Below, piece after piece: positions 9,414 through 47,101 of a stretch of 64,000 nt of DNA. The notes below the pieces were generated by a model. That model searched no databases and was not told where the DNA came from. It worked only from the letters and a program-made list of their open reading frames with translations. Both the position numbers and the translations under genes were made by a program. Every line of letters begins with the position of its first letter. The stretch's first letter is position 1. The DNA is from Candidatus Babelota bacterium (GTDB taxonomy: Bacteria; Babelota; Babeliae; Babelales; JACPOV01). Where the stretch lies: contig JACPOV010000008.1 of the NCBI GenBank assembly GCA_016191325.1, positions 718,351-782,350 of the forward strand, written 5' to 3'.

Positions 9414-9444
9414 GGAAAAAGAAGCTTTGATTGAAAGGATAGTG

Positions 9445-23074: not shown

Positions 23075-25447
23075 TTAAAAAGGTTTTTTTCTTTTTTGGT
23101 ATTCGCGCCAGATAATTGTAGCGCCGATGAGAGCAATAAAGAATATTAGCATGAAGATTCCGCTCGTTAAGGAATGCGAAGCTGCATAATTCTTTTTTTC
23201 TTCAGGTTGCATTCGTTTGCCAGAAACATTCCCTTTCGTTCCTTCTTCCATTGGCCCTTGATAGGGGTCGATTTCTCGATAGGGAGAGAACGGAGCAGTT
23301 GGCATGCCTTCTTTTGCATAACCAAATGGCTGAGCTAAAGGTTTTTGTTCTTGCGTTTGGCTCGCTTTTTCTGATGGCGTAGCGGGAATTGAATAACCTC
23401 CGTAAGGAAGTTGATTTCGCTCGCCCGTATCAAAGAAACCGGGTATGGACGGATAAGCTGCGGAATTGCGAGTTACGGATGAATTTCTATAACGATCTCC
23501 GGGCGCAAACGATTGATTGAACTCTCTTATTGGCAAAGTTCCTGTAGACTCGTATGGGGCATTGTCAGTTGATCTCGCGCGATTGCTTGATGAAGGTATT
23601 ATTCTTGATCTGCCCGGCTGTATTCGTGACCAAGGAGTAAATTCAATCTTGTCGTACGCTTTTTTAATTTCTGGTAATTTACCCTCGAACTGTTTTTTTT
23701 CAGAACTAGGCAATTTTGAATCTTTTTCAATACGCAGCATTTCATCTTTCTTATCAACTATTTTTTCCGGAACTGCTGATATTTCTGGAGAAAGAATTAT
23801 CTGCTCTTTTTCGCTTATTGCTTTCTTTGCATCTTTTTGACTATCAGCTTTTTTAATTTTCTTGAAAGCATTTTCATCATCTCCTGCAACATCACCAATT
23901 CTTGGGCGCTTAATTGTCGGTGGTAAATTCCCGCCTGCTACAATCGCTTGTTGCAACTGAAGAGTTCCTGGTTTTAGTTCTATCAAAGCTTGTTGGCGTG
24001 CAACATCTTGAAAAACCCCTTCTTTGAGAGCGGCAGATTCTTTAATGATACTCTCTTGCTCTTCGGGCGGTAAATTTTCGCCTGAGACGATCGCTTGTTG
24101 CAGCTCAAGAGTTCCTGGTTTTAATTCTATCAAAGCCTTCTCGCGCGCAATTTCTTGAGTGGCCCCTTCTTTTAGAGCCGCGGATTCTTTAACAATACTA
24201 TTTTGCTCTTCTTTGTTTTCTTGCGATTTTGGCATGCTAATTTCTAACTCTTTGCCTATTTGCTCAATCGATTGCGCAGGAACTCGAGGTTCCACTTTTT
24301 CTACTGCCTTGCTAACTGGCTCTTGAATATTCTTTTCTATAATTGTTTCCGGTTCCGGCGCGATTTGAACGATTGGTTCAGCTACGAACGGAATAGGGGG
24401 AATGATTTGTGCAGGAGAAACTACCGGTATAATGTAGTTTGATTGGCCAAAGTTCACCGGTTCGGTAAGCGCACGATATTTTTGCTCACTAATTTGCGGG
24501 CGCTGTTGTTCACGCTCTGCATTAATCGCAAGAGCATTAAGTCGCTCAACCGTTGTGCCAAATAAATTTCTTAGTATTGCGTCATCCGGAAGTTGAATAA
24601 CATCTTGCCTTGAGTTGTAACCGCTTAAACGGGCCATATCAACTACTAATTTTTTAATCAATTGCTGTACCTGAGGAATTGCTAGCCCTTTCAATGAGCC
24701 AATGCGCATTGCAATTTGAGCGACAGATTGAGATCCATATCCTTCAAACGGAATCATTTCTTTTGATTCTTCTTGCGGCAATTGCTCTAAAACGTGCTGC
24801 GCAATCGTATCAAAACCCGCAAGTATCAATTCAATTTTCCTTTGTTCTATTTGCGGCCGGGTAAGTGCTCGTTGCTCAAAACGTTGCTGAGCAATCTCTT
24901 GCCCTTCTATTTCGCTTAGTGCAGGAACAAATTCTTCTTGCTCCAGCTCCGGTTCTATAAGAGAAAGCTCTTGGTACATCGGATATTCAATTGCCGGATA
25001 TTCTTTTTTTACCGACTCAGTTTTTTTAATCGTTGCCTGTTTTTCAGCTTGGCTTTTTATTTTTTGTGCCATTTGAGCGGGAGTTAATATTGTTCTTTGA
25101 GAAGGCGCTGGCTCAATCTCTTGCTCTACGGGTTTTTCTAGAGGTGCAGAATAGACAGGAAAAAGGGGTTTAGTAAATTGGAATGACTTAATTGTTTGGG
25201 TAAATCTTTGAAGATAGGTAGGCTGAGCTGATTTTTCTGGCTCAATCGCTGGAGTTATGCTTGCTCCTGAAAATGCAGGCGTCACAGTTTTCGTTTGCAC
25301 CGGCCTAATTGTAGGGGATTGCTTCGTTTTGCGTATTGGCTGTGCAGGCTTTTTAAACTGTATACGGCTAGAAGCAGTACCAAATATTCCTGCAAAAGCT
25401 TCTACGCTTAAAAGTGATAATAAACTAAGGAATAATAATTTTTTCAT
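23075..25447 (-). CDS. large secreted, P/E/Q-rich low-complexity protein with C-terminal membrane anchor
   Basis: Start moved to the ATG at 25447 (AGAGG upstream). Signal peptide MKKLLFLSLLSLLSVEAFA, long disorder-like sequence, a 49-aa tandem repeat, and C-terminal TM SGIFMLIFFIALIGATIIW followed by REYQKRKKPF. Confidence 0.7.
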   Translation of the reverse strand: MKKLLFLSLLSLLSVEAFAGIFGTASSRIQFKKPAQPIRKTKQSPTIRPVQTKTVTPAFSGASITPAIEPEKSAQPTYLQRFTQTIKSFQFTKPLFPVYSAPLEKPVEQEIEPAPSQRTILTPAQMAQKIKSQAEKQATIKKTESVKKEYPAIEYPMYQELSLIEPELEQEEFVPALSEIEGQEIAQQRFEQRALTRPQIEQRKIELILAGFDTIAQHVLEQLPQEESKEMIPFEGYGSQSVAQIAMRIGSLKGLAIPQVQQLIKKLVVDMARLSGYNSRQDVIQLPDDAILRNLFGTTVERLNALAINAEREQQRPQISEQKYRALTEPVNFGQSNYIIPVVSPAQIIPPIPFVAEPIVQIAPEPETIIEKNIQEPVSKAVEKVEPRVPAQSIEQIGKELEISMPKSQENKEEQNSIVKESAALKEGATQEIAREKALIELKPGTLELQQAIVSGENLPPEEQESIIKESAALKEGVFQDVARQQALIELKPGTLQLQQAIVAGGNLPPTIKRPRIGDVAGDDENAFKKIKKADSQKDAKKAISEKEQIILSPEISAVPEKIVDKKDEMLRIEKDSKLPSSEKKQFEGKLPEIKKAYDKIEFTPWSRIQPGRSRIIPSSSNRARSTDNAPYESTGTLPIREFNQSFAPGDRYRNSSVTRNSAAYPSIPGFFDTGERNQLPYGGYSIPATPSEKASQTQEQKPLAQPFGYAKEGMPTAPFSPYREIDPYQGPMEEGTKGNVSGKRMQPEEKKNYAASHSLTSGIFMLIFFIALIGATIIWREYQKRKKPF
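23918..24211 (-). repeat. 2 x 147-bp in-frame tandem repeat inside the 790-aa gene
   Basis: GGTAAATT anchors at 23922 and 24069 give a 147-nt period. Encoded units are ESIIKESAALKEGVFQDVARQQALIELKPGTLQLQQAIVAGGNLPP and NSIVKESAALKEGATQEIAREKALIELKPGTLELQQAIVSGENLPP. Confidence 0.8.
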
Positions 25448-25536
25448 CTTTTCCAACCTCTTTTAATTCAACTATTAGTATAACTGATTTTGCAAAATTT
25501 TCAATCAGTAATTAATTAAGGTGCGGAAAAGTGATA

Positions 25537-26124: not shown

Positions 26125-27405
26125 ATGCACGGCCTCAAAAAACATATCCTCTCAATAATAGTAGTGACGAAATTTTACTGTATATCGGCAATGGAACCGC
26201 AACCTGCACCAGAAATTGTTTCCTATGCTCAAGAATTCGCGCAGGATGAGATTCGCCCAGAGCTTCTTGAGCAATTGCTTGCTACGTGCCCCAAACTGAA
26301 GCAATTGGTTTTCCGTTTACAAAATCCTCTCCGCTATGGCAGAACAATCCCTACTAAACTTTTGCTCGTTGGCCCTCCTGGAGTTGGCAAAACTACTATT
26401 GCAAAAGGAATTGCTTCACTCATTAATCGCCCCTATATATTTCTTCGAGCATCGTTACTCACAAATGAATATAAAAATTCTGGGCCGCAAAATTTAGCGC
26501 GCGAAATAATACCTATTTTACAAAGCGGGCAACCTTATGTAATCATCGTGGATGAACTGCATGCGCTCACTGAAAATTATAAAAAAGACCACAATGCAGA
26601 TCCAGGAACTGCAGAAGCATTATGGTCGATTCTCGATGAATGCGCCAAAAATCCACAAGTTCTTTTTATTGGTACCACCAATGATGCTGTAAAACTTCCA
26701 GAACCGCTCAAAACAAGATTTGCAAACGGGATCATTGAAATACCACTGCCAAATCTTGAACAGCGAACTAATATTATTAAATATTATTTACACAACATCT
26801 CTTACACATTCGACAGATCATATTTTACAACTCTGGCAAAACAAACGAATCAACTTTCGGGTCGCAATCTTGAGCAACTAGTTTCTGATGCGATTACGTA
26901 CGCTTTAGATCGAGAAGAAATTCCGATGATTAGAAAAAAAGATTTTGAGCGCGCTTTGAAGGATATGAATGAAAATCAAAGTTCATTGGCATTGTTGGGC
27001 TGGGAAAAACATAAGCAATTTTTAAAAGATAACGCCACAACTATCGCCACGATTATTGGTATAGGTGTAAGCCTTGTTGGGCTCGCAATGCAATACTGGT
27101 CGATGCAGCGACAAATTTCCCTTCAGTTAGTTGCGCAAAACGCGCAAATAGACCAAAATAAAAAATTTCTCGATCATCAAGTAAAAGTGCAAAATGAGCA
27201 ATTTACTATCGAACAGGGAAACAAAGAAAAAAAAGCAAACCAGTCTGCGTTCATACAAAAAACTGGTGCCGGCGCGGGTATAGTTACAGGAGCATTTACA
27301 TTAGCTGCATCATTCCCACCCCTTTGGCCAGTAGCTTACGTAATTGGTGGTAGTGGAGCATTGATGGCTGCTGATGCATTTGATCAGAATTGGAGCAAGA
27401 TGTGA
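26125..27405 (+). CDS. membrane-anchored classical-clade AAA+ ATPase
   Basis: N-terminal hydrophobic anchor (ILSIIVVTKFYCISA), Walker A LLLVGPPGVGKTT, Walker B YVIIVDELH, sensor-1 region FIGTTN, PEPLKTRF. C-terminal TM TIATIIGIGVSLVGLAMQYW and Gly-rich helix GAGAGIVTGAFTLAASF. GGGAGA SD. Confidence 0.8.
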   Translation: MHGLKKHILSIIVVTKFYCISAMEPQPAPEIVSYAQEFAQDEIRPELLEQLLATCPKLKQLVFRLQNPLRYGRTIPTKLLLVGPPGVGKTTIAKGIASLINRPYIFLRASLLTNEYKNSGPQNLAREIIPILQSGQPYVIIVDELHALTENYKKDHNADPGTAEALWSILDECAKNPQVLFIGTTNDAVKLPEPLKTRFANGIIEIPLPNLEQRTNIIKYYLHNISYTFDRSYFTTLAKQTNQLSGRNLEQLVSDAITYALDREEIPMIRKKDFERALKDMNENQSSLALLGWEKHKQFLKDNATTIATIIGIGVSLVGLAMQYWSMQRQISLQLVAQNAQIDQNKKFLDHQVKVQNEQFTIEQGNKEKKANQSAFIQKTGAGAGIVTGAFTLAASFPPLWPVAYVIGGSGALMAADAFDQNWSKM

Positions 27406-30368
27406 TTTTTTCCAAAGCACGAAAAAAACTCTCTAAGAAAATCTTATTCGCTGCATTCGTTTCATTCAGCTTTTCAACATTGCAATCTATGGCAATACCG
27501 TGGCAAACCATTGCACCGACTCTTGCAAATTTAAGCTACGGATGCGGAGCTTTAGTTAATAAACTCTTAAACACACAGCGCCATAGCATTCCATCTCCAG
27601 CTCAACAAATACCAATTACTCGCGCGCCTCTAATTTTAAGCGTTAGGCAATCCTCGATCGCCCCAATTAGATCATTATGCATAAAATCGCCAATCGAAAC
27701 CTACAGCAGAGCGCTTCATTGTAAATTGCAACAGAATTTACCTACAGCGCTTCTCAAAAACCCCGCTTCGACCGCAACGCCAAAACTACGATTGGGTCAC
27801 CTGCCCTCAGCTCGTGGCAAAAGCGAAATTTATAAAACGAAAACTGCATCATCGCTCCTAAAATTGCCTCAAGTCAGGCCAGATTTGCAGTATGTAAAAC
27901 CTAAAAGCGCTTGGGAATCTTTTATCGATAAATTAACAATAACAGTCGTTCCACATGATATTGATTATCGCACATATGGCGCAGTCTCCGATCTGCATCG
28001 AGCTACCGTCGAACAGCAATCCCTCATCAACCAATACCAGCAAAATGGCATGTTCCATGTGCTAGAACAGAACGTTGCAAAATTTCAATCAATCTTATTG
28101 GATCTCTCGCGATCAGATCCTCAAGGCGTTATCGCGCGCAATAAATTTTCTGAATTGCAAGCACCTTTGCCACTCGCCCAGCATTATCTTAATGATTTTA
28201 AAACATGCATAAAAATGTTTGCTTTTGATAAAGCAGATACCATAAAACAAAACCTTTCGAAAGTTGATTCATTTTATATAGCAGCTCATTGTCAATCATT
28301 TATACAACGAAGCTTCGGCGCTCAAGCAGCAGCCGATTTTGTAAAAATGGGATGCGAACAAAAAATTCCTGGGTACCTTGAACTCAGCGGGCAAGTAAAA
28401 TATGGAAATATTTTTTCTCGAGCGCGTCGATGGTTTGCAGGATGTAAAACTGGATTCCGTTCAAATGAATTTAATCCGCATCATATTCTTGAAAATAGCT
28501 TTAATCAAAAGATAACGCACGTACGAACATTATGCGAAAACCAAAAATTCCATTTAGCTCATGCTTATATTCAGCAATCGTCAGGGGAAAGCAAGCAAAG
28601 TTTGCTGGGTGTTTATGGGGAATATTTTAAACAAAGCTATAATCAACTTGGTATCGAGCGCTGTTATGAAAATGATCCTTTTTTTGCGCAAATTTCATCC
28701 CAACTTAAATATAGTAGCGTACCCAGCGCAGGCCTCAATGATGTTTTTAAATCACGCCACGATATGTTCAATGCCATTAAGCAAACATGCGCTATCCCTA
28801 ACAACGCTGACGCGTTCAGCAATTCTTTAATGTGGCATCTAGTTGATCAATGCGGAAATAACGCAACTCCAAAGCAGATGGTGAGCGATTTAGCTGTTCT
28901 GTGCAAAGATAGCGCAGCCAAAACAATTTCTGGAGCGTATCATCATTTTTTTGATGGCAACGGGATCTTTAAGCTCTTAAATTATGATAAATCTAACTTT
29001 GCGCATCTTTCTTTTCATGAATCGATTCACCATGAACGCAATACTCACACACGAATCTTCTTAAATGATCTTATACAGATTCCGTGTACAACCAAGCAAC
29101 AGTTAGAGGCTTTTTCAAGCGCCCTAAATCACCTAAACCAATCATGCAAAAATCCTTCCCTAGCTACGCAACATATGACGTTCGCGCAAGACATTGCCAA
29201 TGCGCTCTCAAATCCTGATTACGACCAAAAAATTATTTCCTGCGGCGATTTTAGTAAATATGATATGCGCCTTCTTAAACTTGGATCCGAAATAATTACC
29301 GCTAAGAATAATACGAATGTTCAGCTTGCTGACATGCAAGAGCTGAATGCTGCATTGGCGCAACTAAACGATGCTGGAATCGCACGCTTGAATGGAGATT
29401 ATTATCTTTCAGAACACCTAACCAACAAAACCTTAGGATCGCTCGATATTGAATCAAGCAGTTTTTGGCAGCAAGAAAAAACGAGCTTTATAAAACCGAT
29501 ATCCGCTGATTTAAAAACATCATTTTTCAATATTCAATCTCCCAAAACTCAAGAAGCTGCCCCTTCTAAAAATAGTTTTGCAAACGGTTTTGCGGCCGCC
29601 GTGGGAGCTCGAGCATTGCAGCAGGCTTTTTCTGGAAATTCTTTCGCGCCAGCACCTTCAGCTAATTATTCACAGACGCAAACAGATGCCGCTAGTGCGT
29701 GCCCGCAATGTGCAAACGATGCAGACGCAATTCATGAGTATTTTGACTATTTAAATCAAGGCGGCCAACCTGTTGCCATTTCTGGCGGACAGGCTGATGC
29801 TGCTCAAAAGGCAAAAGAAGACGATTGCAATGAAGCGCCGACAAAATTATCACTTTTAGAACAAATAGAATTAGCAAGAAAAGCAAATGATTATTTCCGG
29901 GAACAAATTGCGAAATATGAAGCTGAAATCGTTGAGGCGATAAAGAAAAAGCTCAAAGAAAATAATTTAAATTATGAACCAACGATTCACGTTAAAGATA
30001 TTAATATGAAACACATCATGTTTACAGAATCGAGAGGCAAAAACCCAGTCGGATTACATTCAAAACGCTGGAATCCTGAACGAATAGTTACGGCAAGCGT
30101 CCGCCCTTGCAAATTCAATACAAGCCATGGGAAAGTTCAGCTCAATTGCATCACTAAACCTTCAACCTTTTTCCCCGATAGCTGGAATGAATTCATGATT
30201 GTTGATAAAATTTTTGAAGCATTAAAGAATATTATTAACGTAAATACAATAAGCAGTAAATTAATAATAAAAGGAATTACGCAAGAACAAATCTATATTG
30301 AATTACATCTTGAAAGTGGAGGTTTAATTTCAACGGCCTATCCATCATTTAAGGATTTATGCATTTAG
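27390..30368 (+). CDS. large secreted protein with C-terminal EndoU-like RNase (polymorphic-toxin type) domain
   Basis: Starts at TTG 27390 or GTG 27402, the latter overlapping the AAA stop as GTGA. Signal peptide KKILFAAFVSFSFSTLQSMA. The last ~128 aa (nt 29982-30365) carry KHIMFTE, VGLHSKRW, KPSTFFPDSWNEFMIVDKIFEALKN and LISTAYP. These parallel the EndoU His/His/Lys motifs and the bacterial EndoU hallmarks. Confidence 0.65.
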   Translation: MEQDVIFSKARKKLSKKILFAAFVSFSFSTLQSMAIPWQTIAPTLANLSYGCGALVNKLLNTQRHSIPSPAQQIPITRAPLILSVRQSSIAPIRSLCIKSPIETYSRALHCKLQQNLPTALLKNPASTATPKLRLGHLPSARGKSEIYKTKTASSLLKLPQVRPDLQYVKPKSAWESFIDKLTITVVPHDIDYRTYGAVSDLHRATVEQQSLINQYQQNGMFHVLEQNVAKFQSILLDLSRSDPQGVIARNKFSELQAPLPLAQHYLNDFKTCIKMFAFDKADTIKQNLSKVDSFYIAAHCQSFIQRSFGAQAAADFVKMGCEQKIPGYLELSGQVKYGNIFSRARRWFAGCKTGFRSNEFNPHHILENSFNQKITHVRTLCENQKFHLAHAYIQQSSGESKQSLLGVYGEYFKQSYNQLGIERCYENDPFFAQISSQLKYSSVPSAGLNDVFKSRHDMFNAIKQTCAIPNNADAFSNSLMWHLVDQCGNNATPKQMVSDLAVLCKDSAAKTISGAYHHFFDGNGIFKLLNYDKSNFAHLSFHESIHHERNTHTRIFLNDLIQIPCTTKQQLEAFSSALNHLNQSCKNPSLATQHMTFAQDIANALSNPDYDQKIISCGDFSKYDMRLLKLGSEIITAKNNTNVQLADMQELNAALAQLNDAGIARLNGDYYLSEHLTNKTLGSLDIESSSFWQQEKTSFIKPISADLKTSFFNIQSPKTQEAAPSKNSFANGFAAAVGARALQQAFSGNSFAPAPSANYSQTQTDAASACPQCANDADAIHEYFDYLNQGGQPVAISGGQADAAQKAKEDDCNEAPTKLSLLEQIELARKANDYFREQIAKYEAEIVEAIKKKLKENNLNYEPTIHVKDINMKHIMFTESRGKNPVGLHSKRWNPERIVTASVRPCKFNTSHGKVQLNCITKPSTFFPDSWNEFMIVDKIFEALKNIINVNTISSKLIIKGITQEQIYIELHLESGGLISTAYPSFKDLCI

Positions 30369-35064: not shown

Positions 35065-35760
35065 GTGAGAAAGTTTTTCTTATTCGTTTTGTGCAGCGCA
35101 TTTTTTCAAACGAACACAATGGAGCTAACTAAAAAAACGGCAGCCCCAATCATTTTTAATGAACTTGCATGGCAACTTATTTTCCGCACGATTATTGATA
35201 CAACTTATGAACAAGATTCGGGAAAAGATAAATGCACTGTCAAAAATGAGATGCGCAACATAGCGCTTTGCTGCACATCCTTAAACAAAATAGTTAAGAA
35301 TCTAGGGTCTGACGATTCGTTCAATAACTATTTTATTTTGCGACGGGCCCCAAACATAAAATTCAAGAATTCCAGGCTCAATGACCTTATATCCAAGCAA
35401 ATGCTAGCTGCGGCCCATCTTGGAACACCTTCCGCTTTAAAAATTTTGGAAAAGCAACTTCAAGAAGGAACCCTAACATCGATCAAACTCGTTTTGGATG
35501 CGAAATTTAAATCGCGACAGCACCTCGTGCCTTGGTTTTTTGCTTGCAGCAATACATGTGGGGGTGAGTATGAAACAACGGTCTCCATCGCGGAAGCGCT
35601 AGCGGACGTTTTGAAAAACTTTCCCAAGACAACTCAATTATTTTGCCACAACGTTTTGAAGGAACGACAGAAGCAAACCCCATCATTTGCAAAGACCCAA
35701 AGCGTTTCCTCTGAATTGGATAAATTGGCCGCAGCGTACGACGAAAAGGAAGAATCATGA
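35065..35760 (+). CDS. hypothetical protein with N-terminal signal-like segment and a possible F-box-like motif
   Basis: GTG start with GAGGA SD. IIFNELAWQLIFRTII ... MRNIALCCTSLNKIV loosely fits the F-box pattern LPxE(L/I)xxxI(F/L) ... VC(K/S)xW. ATGA overlap with tmk. Confidence 0.45.
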   Translation: MRKFFLFVLCSAFFQTNTMELTKKTAAPIIFNELAWQLIFRTIIDTTYEQDSGKDKCTVKNEMRNIALCCTSLNKIVKNLGSDDSFNNYFILRRAPNIKFKNSRLNDLISKQMLAAAHLGTPSALKILEKQLQEGTLTSIKLVLDAKFKSRQHLVPWFFACSNTCGGEYETTVSIAEALADVLKNFPKTTQLFCHNVLKERQKQTPSFAKTQSVSSELDKLAAAYDEKEES

Positions 35761-37171: not shown

Positions 37172-38821
37172 TTACTTTTTTTCTAGCAATGCCTTCACTT
37201 CTGCTGGTAACTTTTTATATTCATCTGCGAATTCTTTATTAAGCGCATTGACGCCTGCTTCTTTTGCAATTAAGAATATAATGAGCTGCTTGAGCGAAAG
37301 CGATTTTAATTTGAGCTCATCAGATTCCCAGATAATAACCGATCCTTTGATACCACCTACGCCCTGCGCTGATGCAAGTTTTCCATTTGAGTTGAATACC
37401 ACGTTTTGCACCCCCTTCGCCTCTAGAGTTTGAAGTTTTTTGCCGGTAAGCGCATCCCAAATTGTAATTGAGTCTTGGCCGCCAACGGCTAGTTTCGTGC
37501 CATGTTCATTGAATGCGACTGAAGTTACCAGCCTCTTTTCGTTATCGTTACTTTGCAATTTGTTTCCTGTAGCAAGATCCCATACTATAAAGCCATCGTT
37601 TCCTCCCGAAGCAAGCTTTGTACCATCTGGACTAAAAGCTACAGAGTTTATGATATGTGAATGACCAGTTAATGTTTTAAGCTTATTTCCAGTTGCAAGA
37701 TCCCATATAATTACCGAAAAATCTTGCCCGCCTGAGGCTACCATTTTTCCATCCGGGCTGAATTTTACCGAGTGAGCAGAAGCTGTGTGGCCTTGCAGGG
37801 TCTGAATTTGCTTTTCTTGCATAATATCCCATATAATGACGTTGGGGCCAAACGCCTCAGCCAAGGCCAACTTTAAGCTATTGGGGCTGAATGCAATAGA
37901 TCTTGTATTAACAGGTATCGCTTTAAGTTGTTTACCGCTAGGAAAATCAAATAGAGAAAGGTCTCGGGTGATTGATCCTGCAACAAGTTTTTTGCCATCC
38001 GGACTAAACAAAACGTTTTCAGGGCGAGTCTCAACTTGGATTAATGCAAAATCTTTTTTTAGAACAAGGTCCCAAACTATGATTGTAGCTTTATTTGCCC
38101 TACGAGACCCATACGCGATTTTTCCACCATCTGGACTGAATGCTACCGAGTCAATTTCACTGAGTTCAGTTAATGATTCTGATTGACTGAATGGCAAGCC
38201 CAAAGCGCTTATAAGATTGTTCGTTACCATTTTTTGAAGATCTTGTGGAAGCAAAGCATTTATTTGGTTGAAGATTCCCTGTCTTGCATTAAGCTCCGCC
38301 AAAGCGTTCGAGGATTGCAATCGTTTTACTAGAGCGTTAACTGATGCTTTTAATAGTTTTTCAATGTCTAAATAATTGGCAGCTTGAGCTACGTATGCAA
38401 TTTCTGTGAAAGTAAAATTTTCTAATGATTTTTCTATTAACTTTGCATCATCAAGTACGCCACTGTTTGCCAATGAAAAAATAGCTTGAACTGCCCCAAG
38501 CGAGAGTTTAGGAAGGGTTATTACACTCCCTGCTTGCAGTACTGCCTGATCATCCTCCGCCATATTTTTCAACGTGACAGAGCTTGCTACTACTTTTTTT
38601 AGTAATTGATATGCCTCAGAATTTATAGCAGGCACGGTTACTTCAATATTACCAGTATCGTCTTGCACAATAAACGGAAATTGGGGGGCTGATGTCTGTT
38701 GTATCCCTGTCGCTGGCAGATATTCCTCTTCCTCCATACCGCTCGGGGGACAACTGGCGTAAGCAAGATTCGTGCAAATGAATAATATGGATATCGCTCT
38801 GAATGTATTAATTATTTTCAT
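37172..38821 (-). CDS. secreted Skp1-like (BTB/POZ fold) domain fused to a seven-blade WD40 propeller
   Basis: Start moved to the ATG at 38821 (GAGGT SD). Signal peptide MKIINTFRAISILFICTNLAYA. SVTLKNMAEDD, VITLPKLSLGAVQAIF and AQAANYLDIEKLLKASVNALVKRL parallel Skp1 SVTIKTMLED, PVPLPNVNAAILKKVI and [24 protein letters not shown]. Seven repeats of the (V/I)xFSPDGxK(L/V)ASGG ... IWD type follow. Confidence 0.7.
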   Translation of the reverse strand: MKIINTFRAISILFICTNLAYASCPPSGMEEEEYLPATGIQQTSAPQFPFIVQDDTGNIEVTVPAINSEAYQLLKKVVASSVTLKNMAEDDQAVLQAGSVITLPKLSLGAVQAIFSLANSGVLDDAKLIEKSLENFTFTEIAYVAQAANYLDIEKLLKASVNALVKRLQSSNALAELNARQGIFNQINALLPQDLQKMVTNNLISALGLPFSQSESLTELSEIDSVAFSPDGGKIAYGSRRANKATIIVWDLVLKKDFALIQVETRPENVLFSPDGKKLVAGSITRDLSLFDFPSGKQLKAIPVNTRSIAFSPNSLKLALAEAFGPNVIIWDIMQEKQIQTLQGHTASAHSVKFSPDGKMVASGGQDFSVIIWDLATGNKLKTLTGHSHIINSVAFSPDGTKLASGGNDGFIVWDLATGNKLQSNDNEKRLVTSVAFNEHGTKLAVGGQDSITIWDALTGKKLQTLEAKGVQNVVFNSNGKLASAQGVGGIKGSVIIWESDELKLKSLSLKQLIIFLIAKEAGVNALNKEFADEYKKLPAEVKALLEKK

Positions 38822-39191
38822 ATTTACCTCAGCCACCTTGCGAGAATTGAATTGGTTTACTGTATTTATCATAGAGTATATATTAAATCTTATTTGAAAA
38901 TAAATAAAAAATTTGGGCTTATAATTAATTATTTTTACATTAAGAGTAAAAATATATTTTGAGAATATTATTTTATAAAATATGCCTGAATAGGCTGTTG
39001 AATATATGCTGGCTCACTAACTACTGTTTTTTGGGCTTGAGCTAGGAAACTTGTCTTACCTAAGCGCAACAACTATGCGCCCTGCCCACCCAATAACCTT
39101 CAAAAAATTTATTTTTTTCTAATTCCTTTTTTTTGTAAACCGGCAGCTTCTCAGGAATTTCGATGCTTACAAAAAAGTCGACCACCCATTA

Positions 39192-40700
39192 TTATCCGCC
39201 CTTAATCACCGCAATCGGCACTAAGCGCGCTACCTTTTTTGCAATACCCGCATCATGCACAACGTTTACTACTTCTTCGACATCTTTGTAAGCGCTCGGC
39301 GCTTCTTCTGCAAGGCCAACATCCGAATCGCATCGCACAATAATCCCTTTTGATTCCAATTGCCCGCGAAGCGCAGATCCGCGAACCGATTTTTTCGCCG
39401 CGAAGCGAGACATTTTTCTTCCTGCACCGTGGCATGAGGAACCAAATGATAACTCCATTCCTTTATTCGTGCCCACAAGTACATAAGAAGCGGTTCCCAT
39501 CGTGCCAGGAATTAAAACAGGCTGCCCAACTGCGCGGTATTTTACCGGAACCTCCGATCTTTCTGCGCCAAAAGAACGTGTTGCGCCTTTTCTATGCACT
39601 AAGAGATCAAGCATCGAGCCATCAACTTCGTGCTTCTCCTTTTTTCCCATGTTGTGCGAAACGTCGTACACTAAATTAAGATGTGCATTATCTCCGAGCA
39701 CCTCTTGCCATGCTTGCCGCACCCAATGGCCAATCAAATGTCTATTTGCCCACGCAAAGTTTGCTGATGCTTGCATTGCTGCAAAATATTCTTGGCCTTC
39801 AGGTGATTTAAAAGGCGCGCATACCAACTCCTTATCGGGCAGTTGTATGTTCCATTTTGGCAATAAGGGCATAAATTGCCGTACATAATCTGTGCATGTT
39901 TGATGGCCCAAACCGCGGGAGCCGCAATGGATCATCACCGTCACTTGATCTTTGCGCAAACCAAAAATCTGTGCCGTTTCAGGATCTAAAATCTCATCAA
40001 CTTTTTGCACTTCAAGAAAATGATTACCAGAACCGAGCGTTCCTAATTGATCAGCTCCCCGTTCTTTTGCTTTATCGGAAACGAGATCTGGATTTGCACC
40101 GCTCATGCATCCGCGCTCTTCACAATATTCAATATCAGCAGGTTCCCCAAATCCCTTTTCGAGCATAAAAGGTGCACCGCGAGCCAGAACATTATTAAGA
40201 TCTTTTCCTTTCATCACGACGTTGCCGCCCCGCCCAACGCCTGATGGCACTGCGTTAAAAAGTGCTGTCGCTAATCGTTCAAGATCTTGTGCAATTTCTT
40301 TCGCAGTAACATTTGAAGCCAATAGACGCACACCACAATTAATATCGTAACCTATTCCGCCGGGCGATATGACACCTCCATGATCAATAGCGGTCGCTGC
40401 AACGCCGCCGATTGGAAACCCGTATCCTTCGTGAATATCTGGCATCGCAAGCGCATAATTAACGATACCAGGCAACGTGGCAACGTTCACTAACTGCCAA
40501 AGGGAACGGTCAATGCCGATATCTTTGAGCATTTTTTCAGTTGCAAAGATGCGTGCCGGAACTCGCATATCAGAGCGAAATGTCCGCGGAATCTCATAAA
40601 GGTATTTTTCGATTTTAATTAAATCTGCTTGAGTTATTTTTTCTGCCATAGCTTCCTTTTTTTTGTGCGCAGCAGTTAGATCATCGTATAGAGAGATCAC
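39192..40700 (-). CDS. rtcB: RNA-splicing ligase RtcB (long archaeo-eukaryotic type, 502 aa)
   Basis: GYDINCGVRLL, GSGNHFLEVQ, HCGSRGLGHQ, LVHRKGATR, GTMGTASYVL, SCHGAGR, and a C-terminal PIAVIKGG. Confidence 0.95.
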   Translation of the reverse strand: MISLYDDLTAAHKKKEAMAEKITQADLIKIEKYLYEIPRTFRSDMRVPARIFATEKMLKDIGIDRSLWQLVNVATLPGIVNYALAMPDIHEGYGFPIGGVAATAIDHGGVISPGGIGYDINCGVRLLASNVTAKEIAQDLERLATALFNAVPSGVGRGGNVVMKGKDLNNVLARGAPFMLEKGFGEPADIEYCEERGCMSGANPDLVSDKAKERGADQLGTLGSGNHFLEVQKVDEILDPETAQIFGLRKDQVTVMIHCGSRGLGHQTCTDYVRQFMPLLPKWNIQLPDKELVCAPFKSPEGQEYFAAMQASANFAWANRHLIGHWVRQAWQEVLGDNAHLNLVYDVSHNMGKKEKHEVDGSMLDLLVHRKGATRSFGAERSEVPVKYRAVGQPVLIPGTMGTASYVLVGTNKGMELSFGSSCHGAGRKMSRFAAKKSVRGSALRGQLESKGIIVRCDSDVGLAEEAPSAYKDVEEVVNVVHDAGIAKKVARLVPIAVIKGG

Positions 40701-40702
40701 CG

Positions 40703-41146
40703 TTAAATATCAAAAACAAGTTCCGTAGTCCACAGGCCGTCAGCTGTTTTCGTAATATGACATTCATGATAGGTTACCGCTTTTATTTCTATTTCAAAAC
40801 GCAAAACAGGCACTCCTCGGAGCGTAGCTTTTAAAACATTGGTGCCCAACTGGTGAATGACCGCGTCAAGATAGGCTTCGTTATGAACATCTGAAAGATA
40901 CAATGCATCTGATAAAAAATTTACTAGAAGATCTTCTAGTTTTTCTCCAGAAACTTTTGAATTGCGTGTGACTATAAGATCTTGGCAAACAAGATAATCT
41001 TTTTTTTTAATGCAATTGACCGCCGACGGACCAATTGATTGAAACATGCCGATAAGCGCATTTATAAATAGTTCTTCCTGTGTCGAGCCAAAAACGCGAA
41101 TTTTCAAATCGGCGGTATGGGATTCAACCTCAAATTTTTTTTGCAC
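40703..41146 (-). CDS. archease (RtcB activator)
   Basis: 147 aa. ESHTADLKIRVFG at the N-terminus and KAVTYHECHI near the C-terminus. Lies 2 nt upstream of rtcB. Confidence 0.85.
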   Translation of the reverse strand: MQKKFEVESHTADLKIRVFGSTQEELFINALIGMFQSIGPSAVNCIKKKDYLVCQDLIVTRNSKVSGEKLEDLLVNFLSDALYLSDVHNEAYLDAVIHQLGTNVLKATLRGVPVLRFEIEIKAVTYHECHITKTADGLWTTELVFDI

Positions 41147-42022: not shown

Positions 42023-42493
42023 ATGAACGTTGAACTACTTTTTAAGGATTTCCTATCGATGCCAATGCATATAAAAGAACTCCTGCCACACTTGCTACCT
42101 GCAGATCAATCGTGGAAAGTGACACTCCTTGCACAGTGGCAAACGATTGTTGGGAACCTAAAGGCACATGTTACGCTTCTTAAAATCGCGGAAGACACGA
42201 TAACCTTAGGGGTCTTTAACTCAAGCTGGCTTCAGGAAATGTATCTCCTCTCCCCGGTCATTCTGGAAACAATTAACAAAAGTCTCGACCAGCCCAGAAT
42301 AAAAAATATACGATTTAAACAGATAGCGCAGAAAAAAAAAGGTGGAAACGCTCCTTCTTTTAAGCGGATTACTGCCGTCGCCCCACTATCGTTATCAAAG
42401 GAACAAGAAGCGGCGCTTAGCAAGATAAATGATCCAGAACTGCGCATCGTTTTATTTCAGTTTTTACAACGCTGCAATAGGGAGAAAGAGTAA
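42023..42493 (+). CDS. dciA: DciA-like (DUF721 family) protein
   Basis: WQTIVGNLKAHVTLLKIAEDTITLGVFNSSWLQEMYLLSPVILETINKSL matches the DUF721/DciA core pattern (W..IVG......T....i..g.L.v.v.ss.w..EL......il..iN). Confidence 0.6.
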   Translation: MNVELLFKDFLSMPMHIKELLPHLLPADQSWKVTLLAQWQTIVGNLKAHVTLLKIAEDTITLGVFNSSWLQEMYLLSPVILETINKSLDQPRIKNIRFKQIAQKKKGGNAPSFKRITAVAPLSLSKEQEAALSKINDPELRIVLFQFLQRCNREKE

Positions 42494-42494
42494 C

Positions 42495-44072
42495 ATGAAG
42501 CAATTAAGCCTTTCAGGCAGTTTTCTCTTCATTTTAATACAAACGACTTTATCCTTAATGCCAACTCCCCCGCCCCATCTAGATGATGGCCCTACTAATC
42601 ATTTTCATCTTTATATATGGGGATATTATAATGATTTATCAGCACAACATAACGTAGCTAAAAAATGTTTTGATACGATCATGCGATCAGGCGGATCCCT
42701 TTACAGCTATCCAGGCTACATTCACAATCTCTTTAATACTAAACAATACGAAAAAATAATTTCGATGATTCCGCAGATCGAAGCAAATTTTTCGCAGCAG
42801 CTTGATCTCCAGATGATCATTATTAAAGCTCTTGAATTGAGTGGCAAGCAATCACAAGCTGATAAACGAATCATGGCGCTAGCAAACTCACATCCAGAAG
42901 ATGCAGAACTCGTTTATTATGCTGCAGCGGCGCATGTTCGTGCACGGCATCCTGAAGAAGCAGTCGCAATCATGGATCGTTATTTAAAAATTCGGGGTGA
43001 AAAAAGCTCGAGCTTTATTTTCTATTTCTTAAAAGCCCAGATTTTTTTTCAGCTCATGCAAAAAGAGTCGGCCGTTTCTAACATCGGCAAATGCGTCGAA
43101 TTAAATCCAAATTTTGAGCAAGGATGGCTTCTTTCCGGTTTGATCAATGAACTCAGTGGAAATGTAGATAAAGCAATGTTAAGTTATCGCAACTTTCTCT
43201 CTATAGTCGGGCATGATCCCAACGTCGAACGCCAAATATTGAATCTGATGCTTAAGAAAGAAAACAGCAAACTCATGCCGCTGAATGATTCTCTCCTAGA
43301 TCGAGCACTCGACTTATATCACCAAAAAGAATTTATTACAGCATTGGAACTCATAAACGATCATTTATTGATTCATCCCTATGAAGAGTCTGCAAGACTC
43401 TTTAAAATTGAGCTTCTCGGCTGTCTTAAAAGGTCAAAAGAGGCGATCGCTCTTTTAAAGAACTGGATCGACGAAAATCCGAATAACCCTTCCTTGTATC
43501 GAATTTTGCATCTTATGTATCTTAACAAGACCGAACAACGAGCTGTTATAGCGACATTAAAGCATTATGCGCATTTAAATCCCTCGATTACCTATCCTTT
43601 TTTTTATTTGATCGATATTGCGCTCAAGAAAAATACGCTTTCAGAGGCATTATATTATCTTAATCAAGCGATTGCTTCATCAAAAGATGTACTGATTAAA
43701 ACACAACTTCTCTATCAAATTGCGATTATTTATTATGAGCGGCATCAATGGCCATCGATGCTTGAGACCCTTAATGTAGCATTTAAAATTAATCCAGACT
43801 TTGCTCCCCTGAGCCATCTCCTTGCCGACTATTATTTAGTAAAAGATAAAAATTTCAAAGCGGCGCAATTACATATCGATGCAGCACTTAAAAAAGATCC
43901 AAACAATCATCTTTTTCTCAATACTCAAGCAAAAATTTGGTATAAAGAAAGAAAATTCTATAAAGCACCAGATTTAATTCAAGTCAGTAGCTATCAGAGC
44001 ACAAAGAAATTACCTAAACTAAAATATGTTCAGAAGTTGAACAAAAAACACAAAGAACTTTCATTAGCGTAA
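42495..44072 (+). CDS. TPR-repeat protein with signal peptide
   Basis: Start moved to the ATG at 42495, 1 nt after the dciA-like stop. MKQLSLSGSFLFILIQTTLSL, then multiple 34-aa helical repeats (for example AQIFFQLMQKESAVSNIGKCVELNPNFEQGW). Confidence 0.7.
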   Translation: MKQLSLSGSFLFILIQTTLSLMPTPPPHLDDGPTNHFHLYIWGYYNDLSAQHNVAKKCFDTIMRSGGSLYSYPGYIHNLFNTKQYEKIISMIPQIEANFSQQLDLQMIIIKALELSGKQSQADKRIMALANSHPEDAELVYYAAAAHVRARHPEEAVAIMDRYLKIRGEKSSSFIFYFLKAQIFFQLMQKESAVSNIGKCVELNPNFEQGWLLSGLINELSGNVDKAMLSYRNFLSIVGHDPNVERQILNLMLKKENSKLMPLNDSLLDRALDLYHQKEFITALELINDHLLIHPYEESARLFKIELLGCLKRSKEAIALLKNWIDENPNNPSLYRILHLMYLNKTEQRAVIATLKHYAHLNPSITYPFFYLIDIALKKNTLSEALYYLNQAIASSKDVLIKTQLLYQIAIIYYERHQWPSMLETLNVAFKINPDFAPLSHLLADYYLVKDKNFKAAQLHIDAALKKDPNNHLFLNTQAKIWYKERKFYKAPDLIQVSSYQSTKKLPKLKYVQKLNKKHKELSLA

Positions 44073-44086
44073 AGGTTTTATTTCCT

Positions 44087-45127
44087 ATGAATAGCCCTAT
44101 TTGTTTTGTTGCTGGCGGATCGGGGGGCCATGTAGTTCCTTGTGCCACCATCGCGCAAGAATATCGCGAGCGCACAAATGCACCGTTCCTTTTTTTTACT
44201 TCAGATCGCGCACTTGAGCATTCTATTTTGAAAAATTATTCATTCATAGAAAATCCTGAAAAACTCCGCCTCAAAAAGTTTCCTGGCTGGCGCTTCTGGC
44301 TTTATCCTTCGTTTATAGTGTCGTTTGCCAAAAGTTGCTCCGCAGCATTTTCAGTATTAAAAAAAAATAAGCCATCCAAAATTATCAGCTTTGGTGGCGC
44401 AATTTCTATTCCTGTTTGCTTGAGTGGAGCGCTCCTTGGTATTCCAATTGAGCTTTATGAGCTCAATGCGATTCCAGGAAAAGCAGTACGCTTACTTTCA
44501 TATTTTGCTCAACGCATTTACATTTGCTTCGAGCAAGCGCTCGATAAGTTGCCCACATCAAAATGCATACTTACTCCCTACCCAGTGCGTTTCAAAACTG
44601 CAAAACGCGAACCATTGGCACTTGCGCAACCAAAAGAACACAAGACAATCTTAGTGCTTGGTGGATCTCAAGGATCTGCATTTATTAATTCGTTTATTAA
44701 AAATTGGATTAAAGAAAGTCCACTCGCGCCATCGTTGCATATTATTCACCAAACCGGTGCTCAACATAGAGCCGAACTTATGGAATTTTATACAGCCAAT
44801 CGCGTTACAGCGCATGTTTTTGATTACGATAATGCGCTTGACGCCTATTATCAACAAGCAGATTTAGTTGTATGCCGCGCGGGCGCCGGCTCACTATTTG
44901 AAACTCTTTTTTTTCAAAAACCTTGCATTACCATTCCGCTTGAAAATTGTGCAGACAACCACCAAAATGCAAATGCATCGGCATTTGCTGAGCGTTATCC
45001 CGAACTCGTGTATATTTTGCGCCAAAACGATTTGGTAACCGACCCAGAACTTTTTGATTACGCGGTTCGTATTGCGTTGAACTACGAAGGCCAAGAATCG
45101 GGCCTACCACCCAGCGTAAATACATAA
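44087..45127 (+). CDS. murG: UDP-GlcNAc:lipid I N-acetylglucosaminyltransferase MurG
   Basis: CFVAGGSGGHVVPCATIAQEY, LVLGGSQGSAFIN, DLVVCRAGAGSLFE. Confidence 0.9.
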   Translation: MNSPICFVAGGSGGHVVPCATIAQEYRERTNAPFLFFTSDRALEHSILKNYSFIENPEKLRLKKFPGWRFWLYPSFIVSFAKSCSAAFSVLKKNKPSKIISFGGAISIPVCLSGALLGIPIELYELNAIPGKAVRLLSYFAQRIYICFEQALDKLPTSKCILTPYPVRFKTAKREPLALAQPKEHKTILVLGGSQGSAFINSFIKNWIKESPLAPSLHIIHQTGAQHRAELMEFYTANRVTAHVFDYDNALDAYYQQADLVVCRAGAGSLFETLFFQKPCITIPLENCADNHQNANASAFAERYPELVYILRQNDLVTDPELFDYAVRIALNYEGQESGLPPSVNT

Positions 45128-47010
45128 TAGTTAATCCCTGCTTTTCGCAAAAGTGGATAGTTTGCAATACTTATAGGGCCGTCCAAAATCATATCAACCA
45201 TATGTTGCCCTTGTTGCGTAAGAACACGCTCACCGCTGGCTCCTGAACCATTAACAAAGAGCACCGCATTTCCATTTTCCTGAATATATTTTTTCACCTC
45301 GCTTTGAACATTCGCTTTATTCTTTGGATACTGCGCAAGCCAAGAAAGAAAGTTTTTCTGGGCAGCTTGAGCGATCGAAGGCTTTAAAACAATTGCGCCA
45401 TTTTGATCTTTAGTATACGAATCGTCGGAAAAATAAATGAGTCCCAATAATTGATCAATGCGCAAATCTGGCGGTGGCGCAAAATAATAAAAATTCGCTG
45501 AACTATCAACGCCCGTAGGTAGAAACGAATCGGCAAAAATAACATACCCAATAACTCCTGAACGGTTTCCATCTTTTGGATCGGTGTCAGCAATTAATCC
45601 ATTCGTATTTGCGCTCATTTTAGAGAGATCTAACTCGCCACCAATCAAGCCAGCTTTGGTATACACTGCGCCCTGCCCAATTTTGCCTTCACTCAAACGA
45701 TCGAGAAATTTTTTCGCTTTTGTGTCATCATTAGTTAAGAGAGTGACACCATACAGCCACGCCTCTTTTTCTTTTATTTGTGGACGAATAATCGTAAAAT
45801 CTAAAACTTTTCCCGCTTCCACTTTTTTTGCAATACTATAATCCTGAGTTTTATACGCAACCCAAAATGTTTCAGGCGCGTCGTACGCAATAGAAGTAGT
45901 ATCGTCAGTCGATTCTTTTGTAGCTGCCTTAGTGCGTTCGATTTGGGCCTGCTGCGCCGATTGCCGCCATACATGACATTGAACTGGATTGATATCACGT
46001 AGTTTTCCGGAAATTGGCTGATCAAAATTTCCGATCGATAAACCCTGAATTGTTACATCCAGCGCACCGCTATCTTTAGAATATACTTCATACGTGTAAA
46101 GCATAGGGCCAGCTGGATCGTAAGTTTTGGTGGTTTCATTATATGAAACGTTTCCTATGCCCTGCTGCGCAATCGGCATCGTTGCAAATGGATTGTTTCC
46201 CGCTGAAAAATTAAATGCAGCTTTTTTGCCCGGCTGCGGCCGAATAGAAAAAGGAAAATTTGTTGAGGTAGATTGCAATGAATTGAATGTGCCTGCTTCA
46301 AGAGTTATTTTATAATCCTGGCTATCTTTAACAAATTCGAGCGTCACATCTTTTGCACTATTATTATAGAACATTCCTAGAAAATCGGTTGTCGCCGTTT
46401 TTATCCCCAAATATTCTGCAGCAAAATTAGTTTTTGCTCTATAAACGCGATAGAAATACATATTATTATCATCTTTTGGCCAAGGATAAATATCACGAGA
46501 CAAAATTTGATATTGAGCAGATGCACCCGCTACTTTTTGTAAATCTTGCACAGACGCTTTACCAAGCAACTGAGCAAAACTATTTTTTGGATCCGCAAAA
46601 AGAGCCACACTAAAATAAAGTTGTTGATTTACAAACGATTGGCCACTATTAGTAAACGGCTCAACGATTTGAGCATAATCATAATCTTCTGAAATGCTCA
46701 TCCCCATTGCCGGAACAATTCTTTGCGTGGCAGCAAGTACTGCATTTGCCGTATCGTTCCATACTTGAAAGCTATAATGATAATCTGCCGTGACGATACC
46801 AACACTTTGGCCTATACCGTTAAGGAAACCACTCGCGCCATCACTAGCATTTTGCGCCGTATTTACAAACTTATTTTTTAAATCGTCCCACTTTTGGTCA
46901 ATATTTTCGTTTTTATTTGATTGATCGTTCTGGCTAGCGTGGCCCAAATGAGGCGTTATGAGAGAAAGAAAAATTATCACCCAATAAAATGGATTGCCGA
47001 TTATGCTCAT
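45082..47010 (-). CDS. large secreted hypothetical protein (642 aa)
   Basis: Start moved to the ATG at 47010 (AAGGAG SD). Signal peptide MSIIGNPFYWVIIFLSLITPHLGHA. No recognisable domain. The 3' end overlaps murG convergently by 46 nt. Confidence 0.65.
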   Translation of the reverse strand: MSIIGNPFYWVIIFLSLITPHLGHASQNDQSNKNENIDQKWDDLKNKFVNTAQNASDGASGFLNGIGQSVGIVTADYHYSFQVWNDTANAVLAATQRIVPAMGMSISEDYDYAQIVEPFTNSGQSFVNQQLYFSVALFADPKNSFAQLLGKASVQDLQKVAGASAQYQILSRDIYPWPKDDNNMYFYRVYRAKTNFAAEYLGIKTATTDFLGMFYNNSAKDVTLEFVKDSQDYKITLEAGTFNSLQSTSTNFPFSIRPQPGKKAAFNFSAGNNPFATMPIAQQGIGNVSYNETTKTYDPAGPMLYTYEVYSKDSGALDVTIQGLSIGNFDQPISGKLRDINPVQCHVWRQSAQQAQIERTKAATKESTDDTTSIAYDAPETFWVAYKTQDYSIAKKVEAGKVLDFTIIRPQIKEKEAWLYGVTLLTNDDTKAKKFLDRLSEGKIGQGAVYTKAGLIGGELDLSKMSANTNGLIADTDPKDGNRSGVIGYVIFADSFLPTGVDSSANFYYFAPPPDLRIDQLLGLIYFSDDSYTKDQNGAIVLKPSIAQAAQKNFLSWLAQYPKNKANVQSEVKKYIQENGNAVLFVNGSGASGERVLTQQGQHMVDMILDGPISIANYPLLRKAGINYYVFTLGGRPDSWPS

Positions 47011-47101
47011 CCGTTTCTCCTTGCTTCTTAAAAACATTGCTATACTACTAACCTGATTATGCGATTAGCAAGCATTGTATGTGTGCCCAGCAAGCCCCAT
47101 T

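Follow-up and report, generated by a model that had tools for sequence, protein, structure and literature searches.

We analyzed a 64,000-nucleotide stretch of contig JACPOV010000008.1 (hereafter, the window) from a metagenome-assembled genome (MAG) of Candidatus Dependentiae (TM6), and find that it encodes a protein in which a Skp1-like domain is joined to a WD40 β-propeller. The favored gene, at positions 37172 to 38821 on the minus strand, specifies 549 amino acids in five parts: a leader, a disordered segment, a BTB/POZ domain about the size of Skp1, a WD40 propeller of seven blades, and a C-terminal tail. The N-terminal domain is very probably a divergent Skp1 homologue with a BTB/POZ fold. 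For the protein as a whole, we assign a probability of roughly 45% to an effector, exported by Sec, in which one chain serves both as cullin adaptor and as substrate receptor.

The Skp1-like BTB/POZ core spans residues 50 to 170 (38312 to 38674, minus strand), as defined by a PDB profile search, hhalign, a shuffle control, AlphaFold, and an alignment with Skp1 and a relative, P0025, described below. An original prediction, made by reading the DNA without database searches, had noted three Skp1-like segments in Skp1 order. These are borne out at residues 81 to 91, 100 to 115, and 145 to 168 by family-profile PDB matches, hhalign, and the shuffles. It had also proposed searches with Skp1 and WD40 profiles as a check; the WD40 search succeeds with the window protein itself, while the Pfam Skp1 profiles fail with it and a Skp1 match comes with a profile of the family. 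Used alone, the N-terminal domain of the window protein matches no Pfam Skp1_POZ, Skp1, BTB, or other family even at E ≤ 10, and the Skp1_POZ and Skp1 gathering thresholds are not reached. Its identity to Skp1 is about 19%, and BLASTP against human Skp1 aligns just 18 residues, around AANYLDI. In a single-sequence search, the sole PDB match at E ≤ 10 is Dictyostelium Skp1a (E 0.043).

A family profile (A1) built from seven copies of the N-terminal domain in six proteins gives a far clearer result. Searched against the PDB (177,635 sequences), it retrieves Skp1 chains only, with the top 28 matches all being Skp1 and the best reaching E 2.2e-5 over 101 positions; chains of BTB-ZF, Kelch, and SPOP proteins are all missing at E ≤ 10. 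Against a small Skp1 profile, hhalign aligns 102 columns with Prob 92.3 and E 5.6e-7. Two hundred column shuffles of A1 score 11.9 ± 2.3 (maximum, 18.8) versus 46.8 for the real profile, a separation of about 15 standard deviations, and the reversed profile scores 14.4. Alignments with other BTB-fold families are weaker: Prob 55 (E 1.2e-4, 85 columns) for long-form BTB sequences (PLZF, BCL6, KEAP1, and SPOP), 1.3 for Elongin C, and 1.5 for KCTD5. The Skp1, BTB, and F-box comparison sequences for hhalign were entered by hand, and the PDB searches are independent of them. The domain is therefore homologous to Skp1 at the profile level, and more closely so than to other BTB-fold families. Among the seven copies themselves, one has a Pfam match to Skp1_POZ (E 0.1) and one a weak match to BTB (E 0.017).

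P0025 provides a bridge between this family and Skp1. It is a 546-residue protein encoded on a 3.7-kb metagenome scaffold of 33% guanine-plus-cytosine (GC) content (L002, 211 to 1851, plus strand), and it was found in a full-length search with unusually high coverage. Like the window protein, it consists of a leader, the N-terminal domain, a propeller (whose seven WD40 repeats are here nearly identical), and a tail of helices. The N-terminal domain of P0025 passes Pfam Skp1_POZ (E 1.3e-9; 38.6 bits, with the gathering score at 21.9). It has a match to human Skp1 at E 4e-11 and aligns with the Skp1 profile at 97.7% probability and 34% identity. With the window protein, P0025 shares one BLASTP high-scoring segment pair that begins at residue 67, within the N-terminal domain, and continues until the propeller ends (31% identity, E 3e-60). 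Its alignment with the N-domain profile of the family is colinear across 145 columns (E 1.4e-4). P0025 has the same architecture with an N-terminal domain that is a Skp1 domain by curated criteria, and the Dependentiae family is best seen as a more divergent version of it. P0025 further suggests a wider class of Skp1-WD40 fusions. Neither of the two genes that neighbor it has a Pfam match.

All structural statements here derive from one AlphaFold model built from a six-sequence alignment (full-length mean predicted local distance difference test [pLDDT] score, 85.5; predicted template-modeling score, 0.77). This model replaced a single-sequence one in which the N-terminal domain was poor (pLDDT 50 to 70); in the six-sequence model, the Skp1-like core has a pLDDT of about 90. 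Foldseek of the full model against the PDB is dominated by WD40 matches, so that the fold of the N-terminal domain is not singled out. The model predicts core strands at residues 51 to 53, 59 to 62, and 100 to 103 and helices at 69 to 95, 108 to 119, 126 to 133, 138 to 151, and 154 to 168. Within residues 50 to 170, this gives the strand-strand-helix-strand-helix order of the BTB core, and the order of secondary-structure elements matches that of Skp1. The hallmarks of Skp1 are the core BTB fold of three strands and five helices plus a Skp1-specific helix after the A3 insertion (PMC1257465). Helix 126 to 133 sits where Skp1 has its family-specific helix 4, helix 138 to 151, which carries AANYLDI, corresponds to Skp1 H5, and helix 154 to 168 corresponds to H6.

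The original prediction had allowed that this region might model as an unrelated helical domain, whose resemblance to Skp1 would be due to chance or composition. The low identity, the 18-residue BLASTP alignment, and the silence of Pfam on the window protein alone are what such an explanation would lead one to expect. We nevertheless regard it as largely refuted and hardly credible: the profile matches are colinear over more than 100 columns at E values of 2.2e-5 and 5.6e-7, shuffled and reversed controls score far lower, P0025 connects the two families, and the predicted topology is mixed α/β and matches BTB. Judged by these comparisons, the Skp1 similarity is real but remote.

The similarity may extend beyond the core. 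Residues 171 to 210 (38192 to 38311, minus strand) are predicted to form three helices (171 to 179, 181 to 190, and 193 to 206) that HMMER and hhalign place colinear with Skp1 H7-H8. Within this stretch lie the invariant Asn178 and a conserved motif, L-(S/L)-P-x-x-Q-K-x-I. HMMER alignments from the PDB profile search reach Skp1 residue ~145; a low-threshold hhalign alignment covers Skp1 residues 2 to 162 at low posterior confidence, and the invariant Asn aligns near Skp1 F139-N140, likewise with low posterior confidence. The alignments indicate that H5 and H6 are clearly kept and that H7 is probably kept. The conserved H8 residues (E-N-x-W) are absent, and we therefore count the helices at this position, with low confidence, as only positionally equivalent. 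The Skp1-like domain is 164 residues long, compared with 163 for Skp1. The earlier claim that the C-terminal helices of Skp1 had been replaced by a linker is accordingly inaccurate, because H5 to H7 appear to be retained and helices occupy the H8 position.

We next consider which cullin such a domain might contact. The PxPN motif in strand B3 of Skp1 contacts Cul1 (PMC1257465). At this position, the window protein has T-L-P-K, so that only half of the motif is kept; across the seven domain copies, the second Pro is present in five, and the first Pro and the Asn are absent. P0025 has P-I-P-V-N. Other possible cullin-facing elements are kept, namely M-A-E (M-L-E in Skp1), L-P in strand B3, and AANYL in H5, of which Y and L are invariant in the family. 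Indeed, the most conserved elements of the N-terminal domain (S-x-T-L-K-N-M-x-E, L-P of B3, and A-x-Y-L of H5) coincide with the cullin-facing regions of Skp1/BTB complexes. We take M-x-E to map to the "phi-x-E" Cul3 motif and N108/Y109 to map to Cul1 contacts. Cul1 specificity is uncertain.

The incomplete PxPN motif raises the question of whether the N-terminal domain is an ordinary BTB domain, possibly dimeric, that recruits host Cul3 in the manner of poxviral BTB-Kelch proteins and, presumably, giant-virus BTB-WD proteins rather than mimicking Skp1 on Cul1. The family profile does also match long-form BTB, one paralogue has the weak Pfam BTB match noted above, and the best whole-protein structural matches are BTB/POZ-WD proteins of the Mimiviridae. 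Yet Skp1 is the better match in every test, including the PDB profile search, where the BTB-ZF, Kelch, and SPOP chains do not appear. The domain also has a helix at the Skp1-specific helix 4 position and the AANYLDI motif, it lacks the β1/α1 dimerization elements of long-form BTB domains, and it is followed by neither a BACK nor a 3-box domain. A Cul3-type adaptor seems to us improbable.

The seven-blade WD40 propeller occupies residues 211 to 500 (37322 to 38191, minus strand) and was identified by Pfam, PDB search, AlphaFold, and Foldseek, as the original prediction had anticipated. Pfam WD40 scores 116.6 bits against a cutoff of 27, and many β-propeller families match; the best PDB sequence match is 2ymu (E 6e-101). 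The assignment of the C-terminal 60% of the protein to a WD40 propeller is unambiguous. The model has 28 strands in seven blades, and Foldseek aligns it with the seven-bladed PkwA propeller (5yzv) at a template-modeling score of 0.92. An N-terminal strand, residues 211 to 218, closes blade 7 as a "velcro." This strand begins four residues after the last helix of the Skp1-like domain, which is therefore tethered directly to the propeller. In the model, the two appear to be joined rigidly through the closing strand.

Residues 501 to 549 (37175 to 37321, minus strand) form a family-specific three-helix tail, LSLKQLIIFLIAKE...KLPAEVKALLEKK, recognized from the alignment and from a pLDDT of about 90. 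It is the best-conserved region of the family, with a mean pairwise identity of 40.6% versus 26 to 28% elsewhere, and follows the pattern LSLKQLIIFLIAKE...KLPxEVKxLxEKK with a Lys-rich end. In the model, the tail leaves the same blade that strand 211 to 218 closes. Profile searches with the tail against the PDB and Pfam returned only noise and no relative. Two possible F-box remnants were considered and rejected: hhalign against an F-box alignment gives Prob 0.2 for the linker, with its "LLPQDL" helix after the core, and Prob 4.7 for the "KLPAEVK" end of the tail, and neither has a Pfam F-box match. From the geometry of the model, the linker helices and the tail probably fill the F-box groove in cis and fix the orientation of the propeller. 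It is also possible that the tail is a C-terminal secretion or targeting signal instead of a structural part.

The state of this groove bears on a further explanation, in which the protein is a decoy or inhibitor. The Skp1-like domain would bind a host cullin, or F-box proteins via the H5-H7 groove, nonproductively, and thereby block assembly of the Skp1-Cul1-F-box (SCF) ligase or sequester its components, with the propeller serving localization or a second target. The domain evidence is the same as for a receptor; H5 to H7, which make up the core of the face that binds the F-box in Skp1, are still present (H7 probably), and the degenerate PxPN could mean altered or noncanonical binding. A propeller of the substrate type on a rigid tether, and propellers that have diversified among the paralogues, look more like a receptor family, however, and the groove is probably already taken up in cis by the tail together with the linker helices. 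We consider a decoy quite unlikely.

The protein begins with a Sec-type signal-peptide-like leader, residues 1 to 22 (38756 to 38821, minus strand; MKIINTFRAISILFICTNLAYA). By inspection, the leader has a K/R n-region, a hydrophobic core, and A-Y-A before the likely cleavage site, followed by S. An equivalent hydrophobic leader aligns in all six family members and is also found in P0025, consistent with the signal peptide proposed at the outset. The leader is followed by a disordered acidic and polar stretch, residues 23 to 49 (38675 to 38755, minus strand), delimited by AlphaFold pLDDT and the alignment; pLDDT is below 50 for residues 1 to 44. This stretch opens with a family-conserved S-C-P-P motif, in which P26 is invariant in the six-sequence alignment. 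We also considered a lipoprotein. A lipobox is unlikely because the Cys of A-S-C-P-P is not conserved (Y or S in two members) and, in the paralogue P0006, lies 37 residues in, far from the leader.

The open reading frame (ORF) extends from 37172 to 38872 (minus strand) and encodes 566 amino acids from its first ATG, as shown by the ORF listing. We favor the start at 38821, which is Met18 of this ORF, as the original prediction did. It is preceded, 5 nucleotides upstream, by a Shine-Dalgarno-like GAGG read from the sequence (38827 to 38830, minus strand), all relatives have an aligned hydrophobic leader, and S-C-P-P lies upstream of the start annotated by NCBI. On inspection, the upstream ATG at 38872 has no comparable Shine-Dalgarno site before it, leaving that of 38821 as the sole one. 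A gene call derived from the Logan assembly begins 17 codons too early, giving the 566-residue form. The NCBI annotation (MBI2775162.1; 521 amino acids, beginning MEEEEY) is named only "WD40 repeat domain-containing protein." Its start is probably too short, because it cuts off the leader and the conserved S-C-P-P motif (38737 to 38821, minus strand).

The family is small. The MAG encodes four paralogues, including the window gene. An exhaustive phmmer search with the N-terminal domain against 1.84 billion representative proteins found only five other relatives, all of which share the order of leader, N-terminal domain, propeller, and conserved C-terminal tail. Including P0025, the family comprises seven proteins, four from this one MAG and three others from the 1.84 billion proteins and a word-indexed set of 5.8 billion clusters. 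The word-indexed search with the N-terminal domain and its profile returned no match, not even the 100%-identical cluster representative P0002, and its negatives are not to be trusted for short divergent domains; the full-length query did retrieve P0002. Degenerate-pattern scans of GTDB genomes and JGI metagenomes found no further member, and tblastn found no paralogue within the window. Both the tail and the four-paralogue family had escaped the original prediction, whose stated domains otherwise stand.

The paralogue P0004 (MBI2774472.1), whose gene lies elsewhere in this MAG and outside the window, carries a tandem pair of Skp1-like domains ahead of its propeller; the first of the pair ends after the H6 equivalent and lacks H7-H8-like helices. 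P0006 and P0007 are the products of neighboring genes (L001) and have much more degenerate WD40 repeats; these genes adjoin umuD/umuC-like genes, an uninformative context. A set of four paralogues whose propellers diverge, and in one of which the Skp1-like domain is duplicated, fits an effector or receptor family.

Several known systems resemble the window protein. Eukaryotic Skp1 (PF03931 Skp1_POZ plus PF01466 Skp1) shares with it a BTB/POZ core (predicted in the window protein, with a helix at the position of the extra Skp1 helix), the S-x-T-(L/I)-K-x-M-x-E-D and AANYLDI motifs, and colinearity over all 163 residues, the H8 part with low confidence. As in the SCF-Fbxw ligases (the Skp1/β-TrCP1, Skp1/Fbw7, and Skp1/Cdc4 complexes), a Skp1 domain is paired with a WD40 propeller. 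Unlike eukaryotic Skp1, the window protein carries both in one chain with no F-box, is about 19% identical and below the Pfam thresholds, has PxPN reduced to x-L-P-x and the H8 residues not conserved, and is a bacterial gene product with a signal-peptide-like leader and a novel C-terminal tail.

The combination of an N-terminal BTB fold and a C-terminal β-propeller in one chain, seen here by AlphaFold and Foldseek, has its closest structural counterparts in giant viruses. BTB/POZ-WD proteins of the Mimiviridae (mimivirus R739, R786, and R731, and those of Powai lake megavirus and moumouvirus) have an N-terminal BTB fold and a C-terminal WD40 domain in about 450 to 550 amino acids, are encoded by parasites of amoebae, and are the top Foldseek matches among viral models, with both domains aligned (E 4.5e-20 to ~1e-12). 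They differ in that most full-length structural alignments show 9 to 16% identity and the viral proteins are annotated as generic BTB, not Skp1-like. The exhaustive N-domain sequence search did not retrieve them, indicating no detectable sequence similarity in that domain. Viral proteins of this kind are not expected to carry a signal peptide.

BTB-Kelch and MATH-BTB adaptors of Cul3, including vaccinia A55, also combine a cullin-binding BTB fold with a β-propeller receptor in one chain. BTB-Kelch proteins have been described as single-chain analogues of Skp1/β-TrCP1 (PMC3597819, PMC4403949), and poxviral versions subvert host Cul3 (PMC6484134). These adaptors have a long-form dimeric BTB, a BACK/3-box linker, and Kelch repeats, and bind Cul3; the window protein has a Skp1-type BTB, no BACK domain, and WD40 repeats.

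Among bacterial proteins, Protochlamydia BTB-LRR, Neochlamydia NEX, Legionella AnkB, Ralstonia GALA, and Agrobacterium VirF likewise join a eukaryote-type adaptor or receptor domain of cullin-RING ligases to repeats; the bacteria that carry them live in association with amoebae or plants. Chlamydial BTB and F-box proteins and other bacterial F-box effectors are thought or have been shown to hijack host ubiquitination, and Chlamydiae have been reported as the only bacterial lineage with BTB domains, in the form of BTB-LRR proteins (PMC4209131, PMC1257465). These effectors mimic the receptor side (F-box) or use a generic BTB and are type III or type IV secretion substrates, whereas the window protein offers a Skp1-type adaptor with a Sec-type leader in Dependentiae. 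The original prediction called the fusion a type that it had not seen described. For the concept, this does not hold, as the general strategy, in which a parasite encodes a cullin adaptor of BTB fold with a repeat receptor attached to it, is already known from BTB-Kelch, giant-virus BTB-WD, and chlamydial BTB-LRR proteins. It does hold for a Skp1-type adaptor in a bacterium, as our full-text search of open-access papers found no description of a bacterial Skp1 homologue or Skp1-WD40 fusion. What is new is this adaptor type in a bacterium, its direct WD40 fusion with neither an F-box nor a BACK linker in between, the conserved tail, and the presence of such a protein in Dependentiae.

The idea first proposed for this gene, an adaptor and receptor in one piece that needs no F-box to dock on a host cullin, is a reasonable reading by analogy and would fit the biology of the Dependentiae. 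These bacteria are obligate parasites of protists, and among the proteins encoded in their genomes are WD40, F-box, LRR, and TPR proteins whose presumed targets lie in amoebal hosts (PMC4776705). Skp1 binds Cul1 via its BTB fold, and the BTB-Cul3 and Elongin C-Cul2/5 complexes use structurally analogous interfaces (PMC4403949). Taken together with the single-chain BTB-Kelch analogues, these observations make a secreted single-chain adaptor-receptor the most economical reading. In the mechanism we envisage, the protein would be exported by Sec, followed by release or by outer membrane vesicles, as proposed for other Dependentiae effectors. Its Skp1-like domain would bind a host cullin at the N-terminal domain of the latter, in the way that Skp1 docks on Cul1 and BTB proteins on Cul3, and the WD40 propeller would recruit host proteins for ubiquitination. 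A single chain would thus serve as both adaptor and substrate receptor, making host Skp1 and an F-box protein dispensable.

Several observations weigh against this reading. The identity to Skp1 is low, the window protein draws no Pfam match in its N-terminal domain, and only half of its PxPN motif survives. The propeller belongs to the "SPDG" type of WD40 that is common in bacteria and is no relative of Fbw7 or β-TrCP. The gene sits among housekeeping genes (tmk, holB, rtcB, and archease) and has a GC content of 0.41, equal to that of its flanks. Finally, a Sec signal peptide alone delivers a protein only to the periplasm.

An alternative is an envelope protein with no role in host ubiquitination, located in the periplasm or at the surface, in which the BTB-like domain oligomerizes or scaffolds and the propeller is a TolB- or BamB-like binding platform or an adhesin. 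The signal-peptide-like leader in all members, the bacterial type of the WD40 repeats, a weak NCBIfam similarity to TolB propellers (E 3e-11, far under the cutoff), and the housekeeping neighborhood with its native GC content are all consistent with such a role. It leaves the specific Skp1 similarity, and the passing of Pfam Skp1_POZ by P0025, hard to explain. Elsewhere, Skp1/BTB domains are found almost exclusively in eukaryotes, the viruses of eukaryotes, and amoeba-associated Chlamydiae (PMC1257465, PMC4209131). Signal peptides are moreover the rule for presumed Dependentiae effectors: most eukaryote-like proteins in the phylum bear Sec signal peptides, and in the cultured member Chromulinavorax they are found on 44% of coding sequences and 78% of ankyrin proteins, with secretion by Sec and vesicles having been proposed (PMC6561590). 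We therefore judge an envelope protein unlikely and favor the exported adaptor-receptor.

In the surroundings of the gene, its stop codon (37172 to 37174, minus strand) converges on holB, which encodes the DNA polymerase III δ' subunit and ends at 37156. The window has a GC content of about 40%, and its other genes include bamA, gltX, a class A penicillin-binding protein gene, tmk, holB, rtcB, and archease. Composition gives no signal of recent horizontal transfer, the GC content of the gene being that of its flanks. The RNA ligase gene rtcB (579 bits) is directly followed by that of its activator, archease (39192 to 41146, minus strand), an RNA-repair and tRNA-ligation pair kept in a reduced parasitic genome. 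A 231-residue ORF (35065 to 35760, plus strand) has a signal-peptide-like N terminus, MRKFFLFVLCSAFFQTNT, and no Pfam match, and its last 4 bp overlap the start of tmk. The product may be another exported protein. Five large ORFs (430 to 992 amino acids) have no Pfam match at E ≤ 1e-5: 23075 to 25456 (minus), 27390 to 30368 (plus), 45082 to 47037 (minus), 9427 to 10845 (plus), and 20423 to 21715 (minus). The one of 992 amino acids overlaps the end of an AAA+ ATPase gene (26125 to 27405), with which it may share an operon. A 547-residue TPR-repeat protein (42429 to 44072, plus strand) shows weak matches to the eukaryote-type ANAPC3 and TTC21 and belongs to a type of repeat protein discussed as a host-interaction candidate in TM6 genomes.

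In its fullest form, our proposal is that this protein is the first bacterial Skp1 homologue, secreted and docking on host Cul1, with a fused WD40 propeller that selects substrates for an F-box-independent SCF-like ligase, a tail that replaces the F-box in cis, and membership in a wider class found in protist-associated microbes. In all of these particulars together, the proposal is doubtful. The mimics of cullin-RING ligases known from pathogens imitate the substrate receptor (F-box or SOCS-box-like), the RING/U-box/HECT-like catalytic part, or a generic BTB. A Skp1-type adaptor fused to its own receptor would, if true, be a different solution, one that bypasses the F-box as well as host Skp1. 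Engineering of single-chain SCF receptors could also take the fusion as a natural template. If the assignment is true, BTB-fold proteins extend to a second bacterial phylum after Chlamydiae. The Dependentiae are almost uncultured, and a small, well-defined family with a host cullin as candidate partner would offer a concrete entry point to their effectors.

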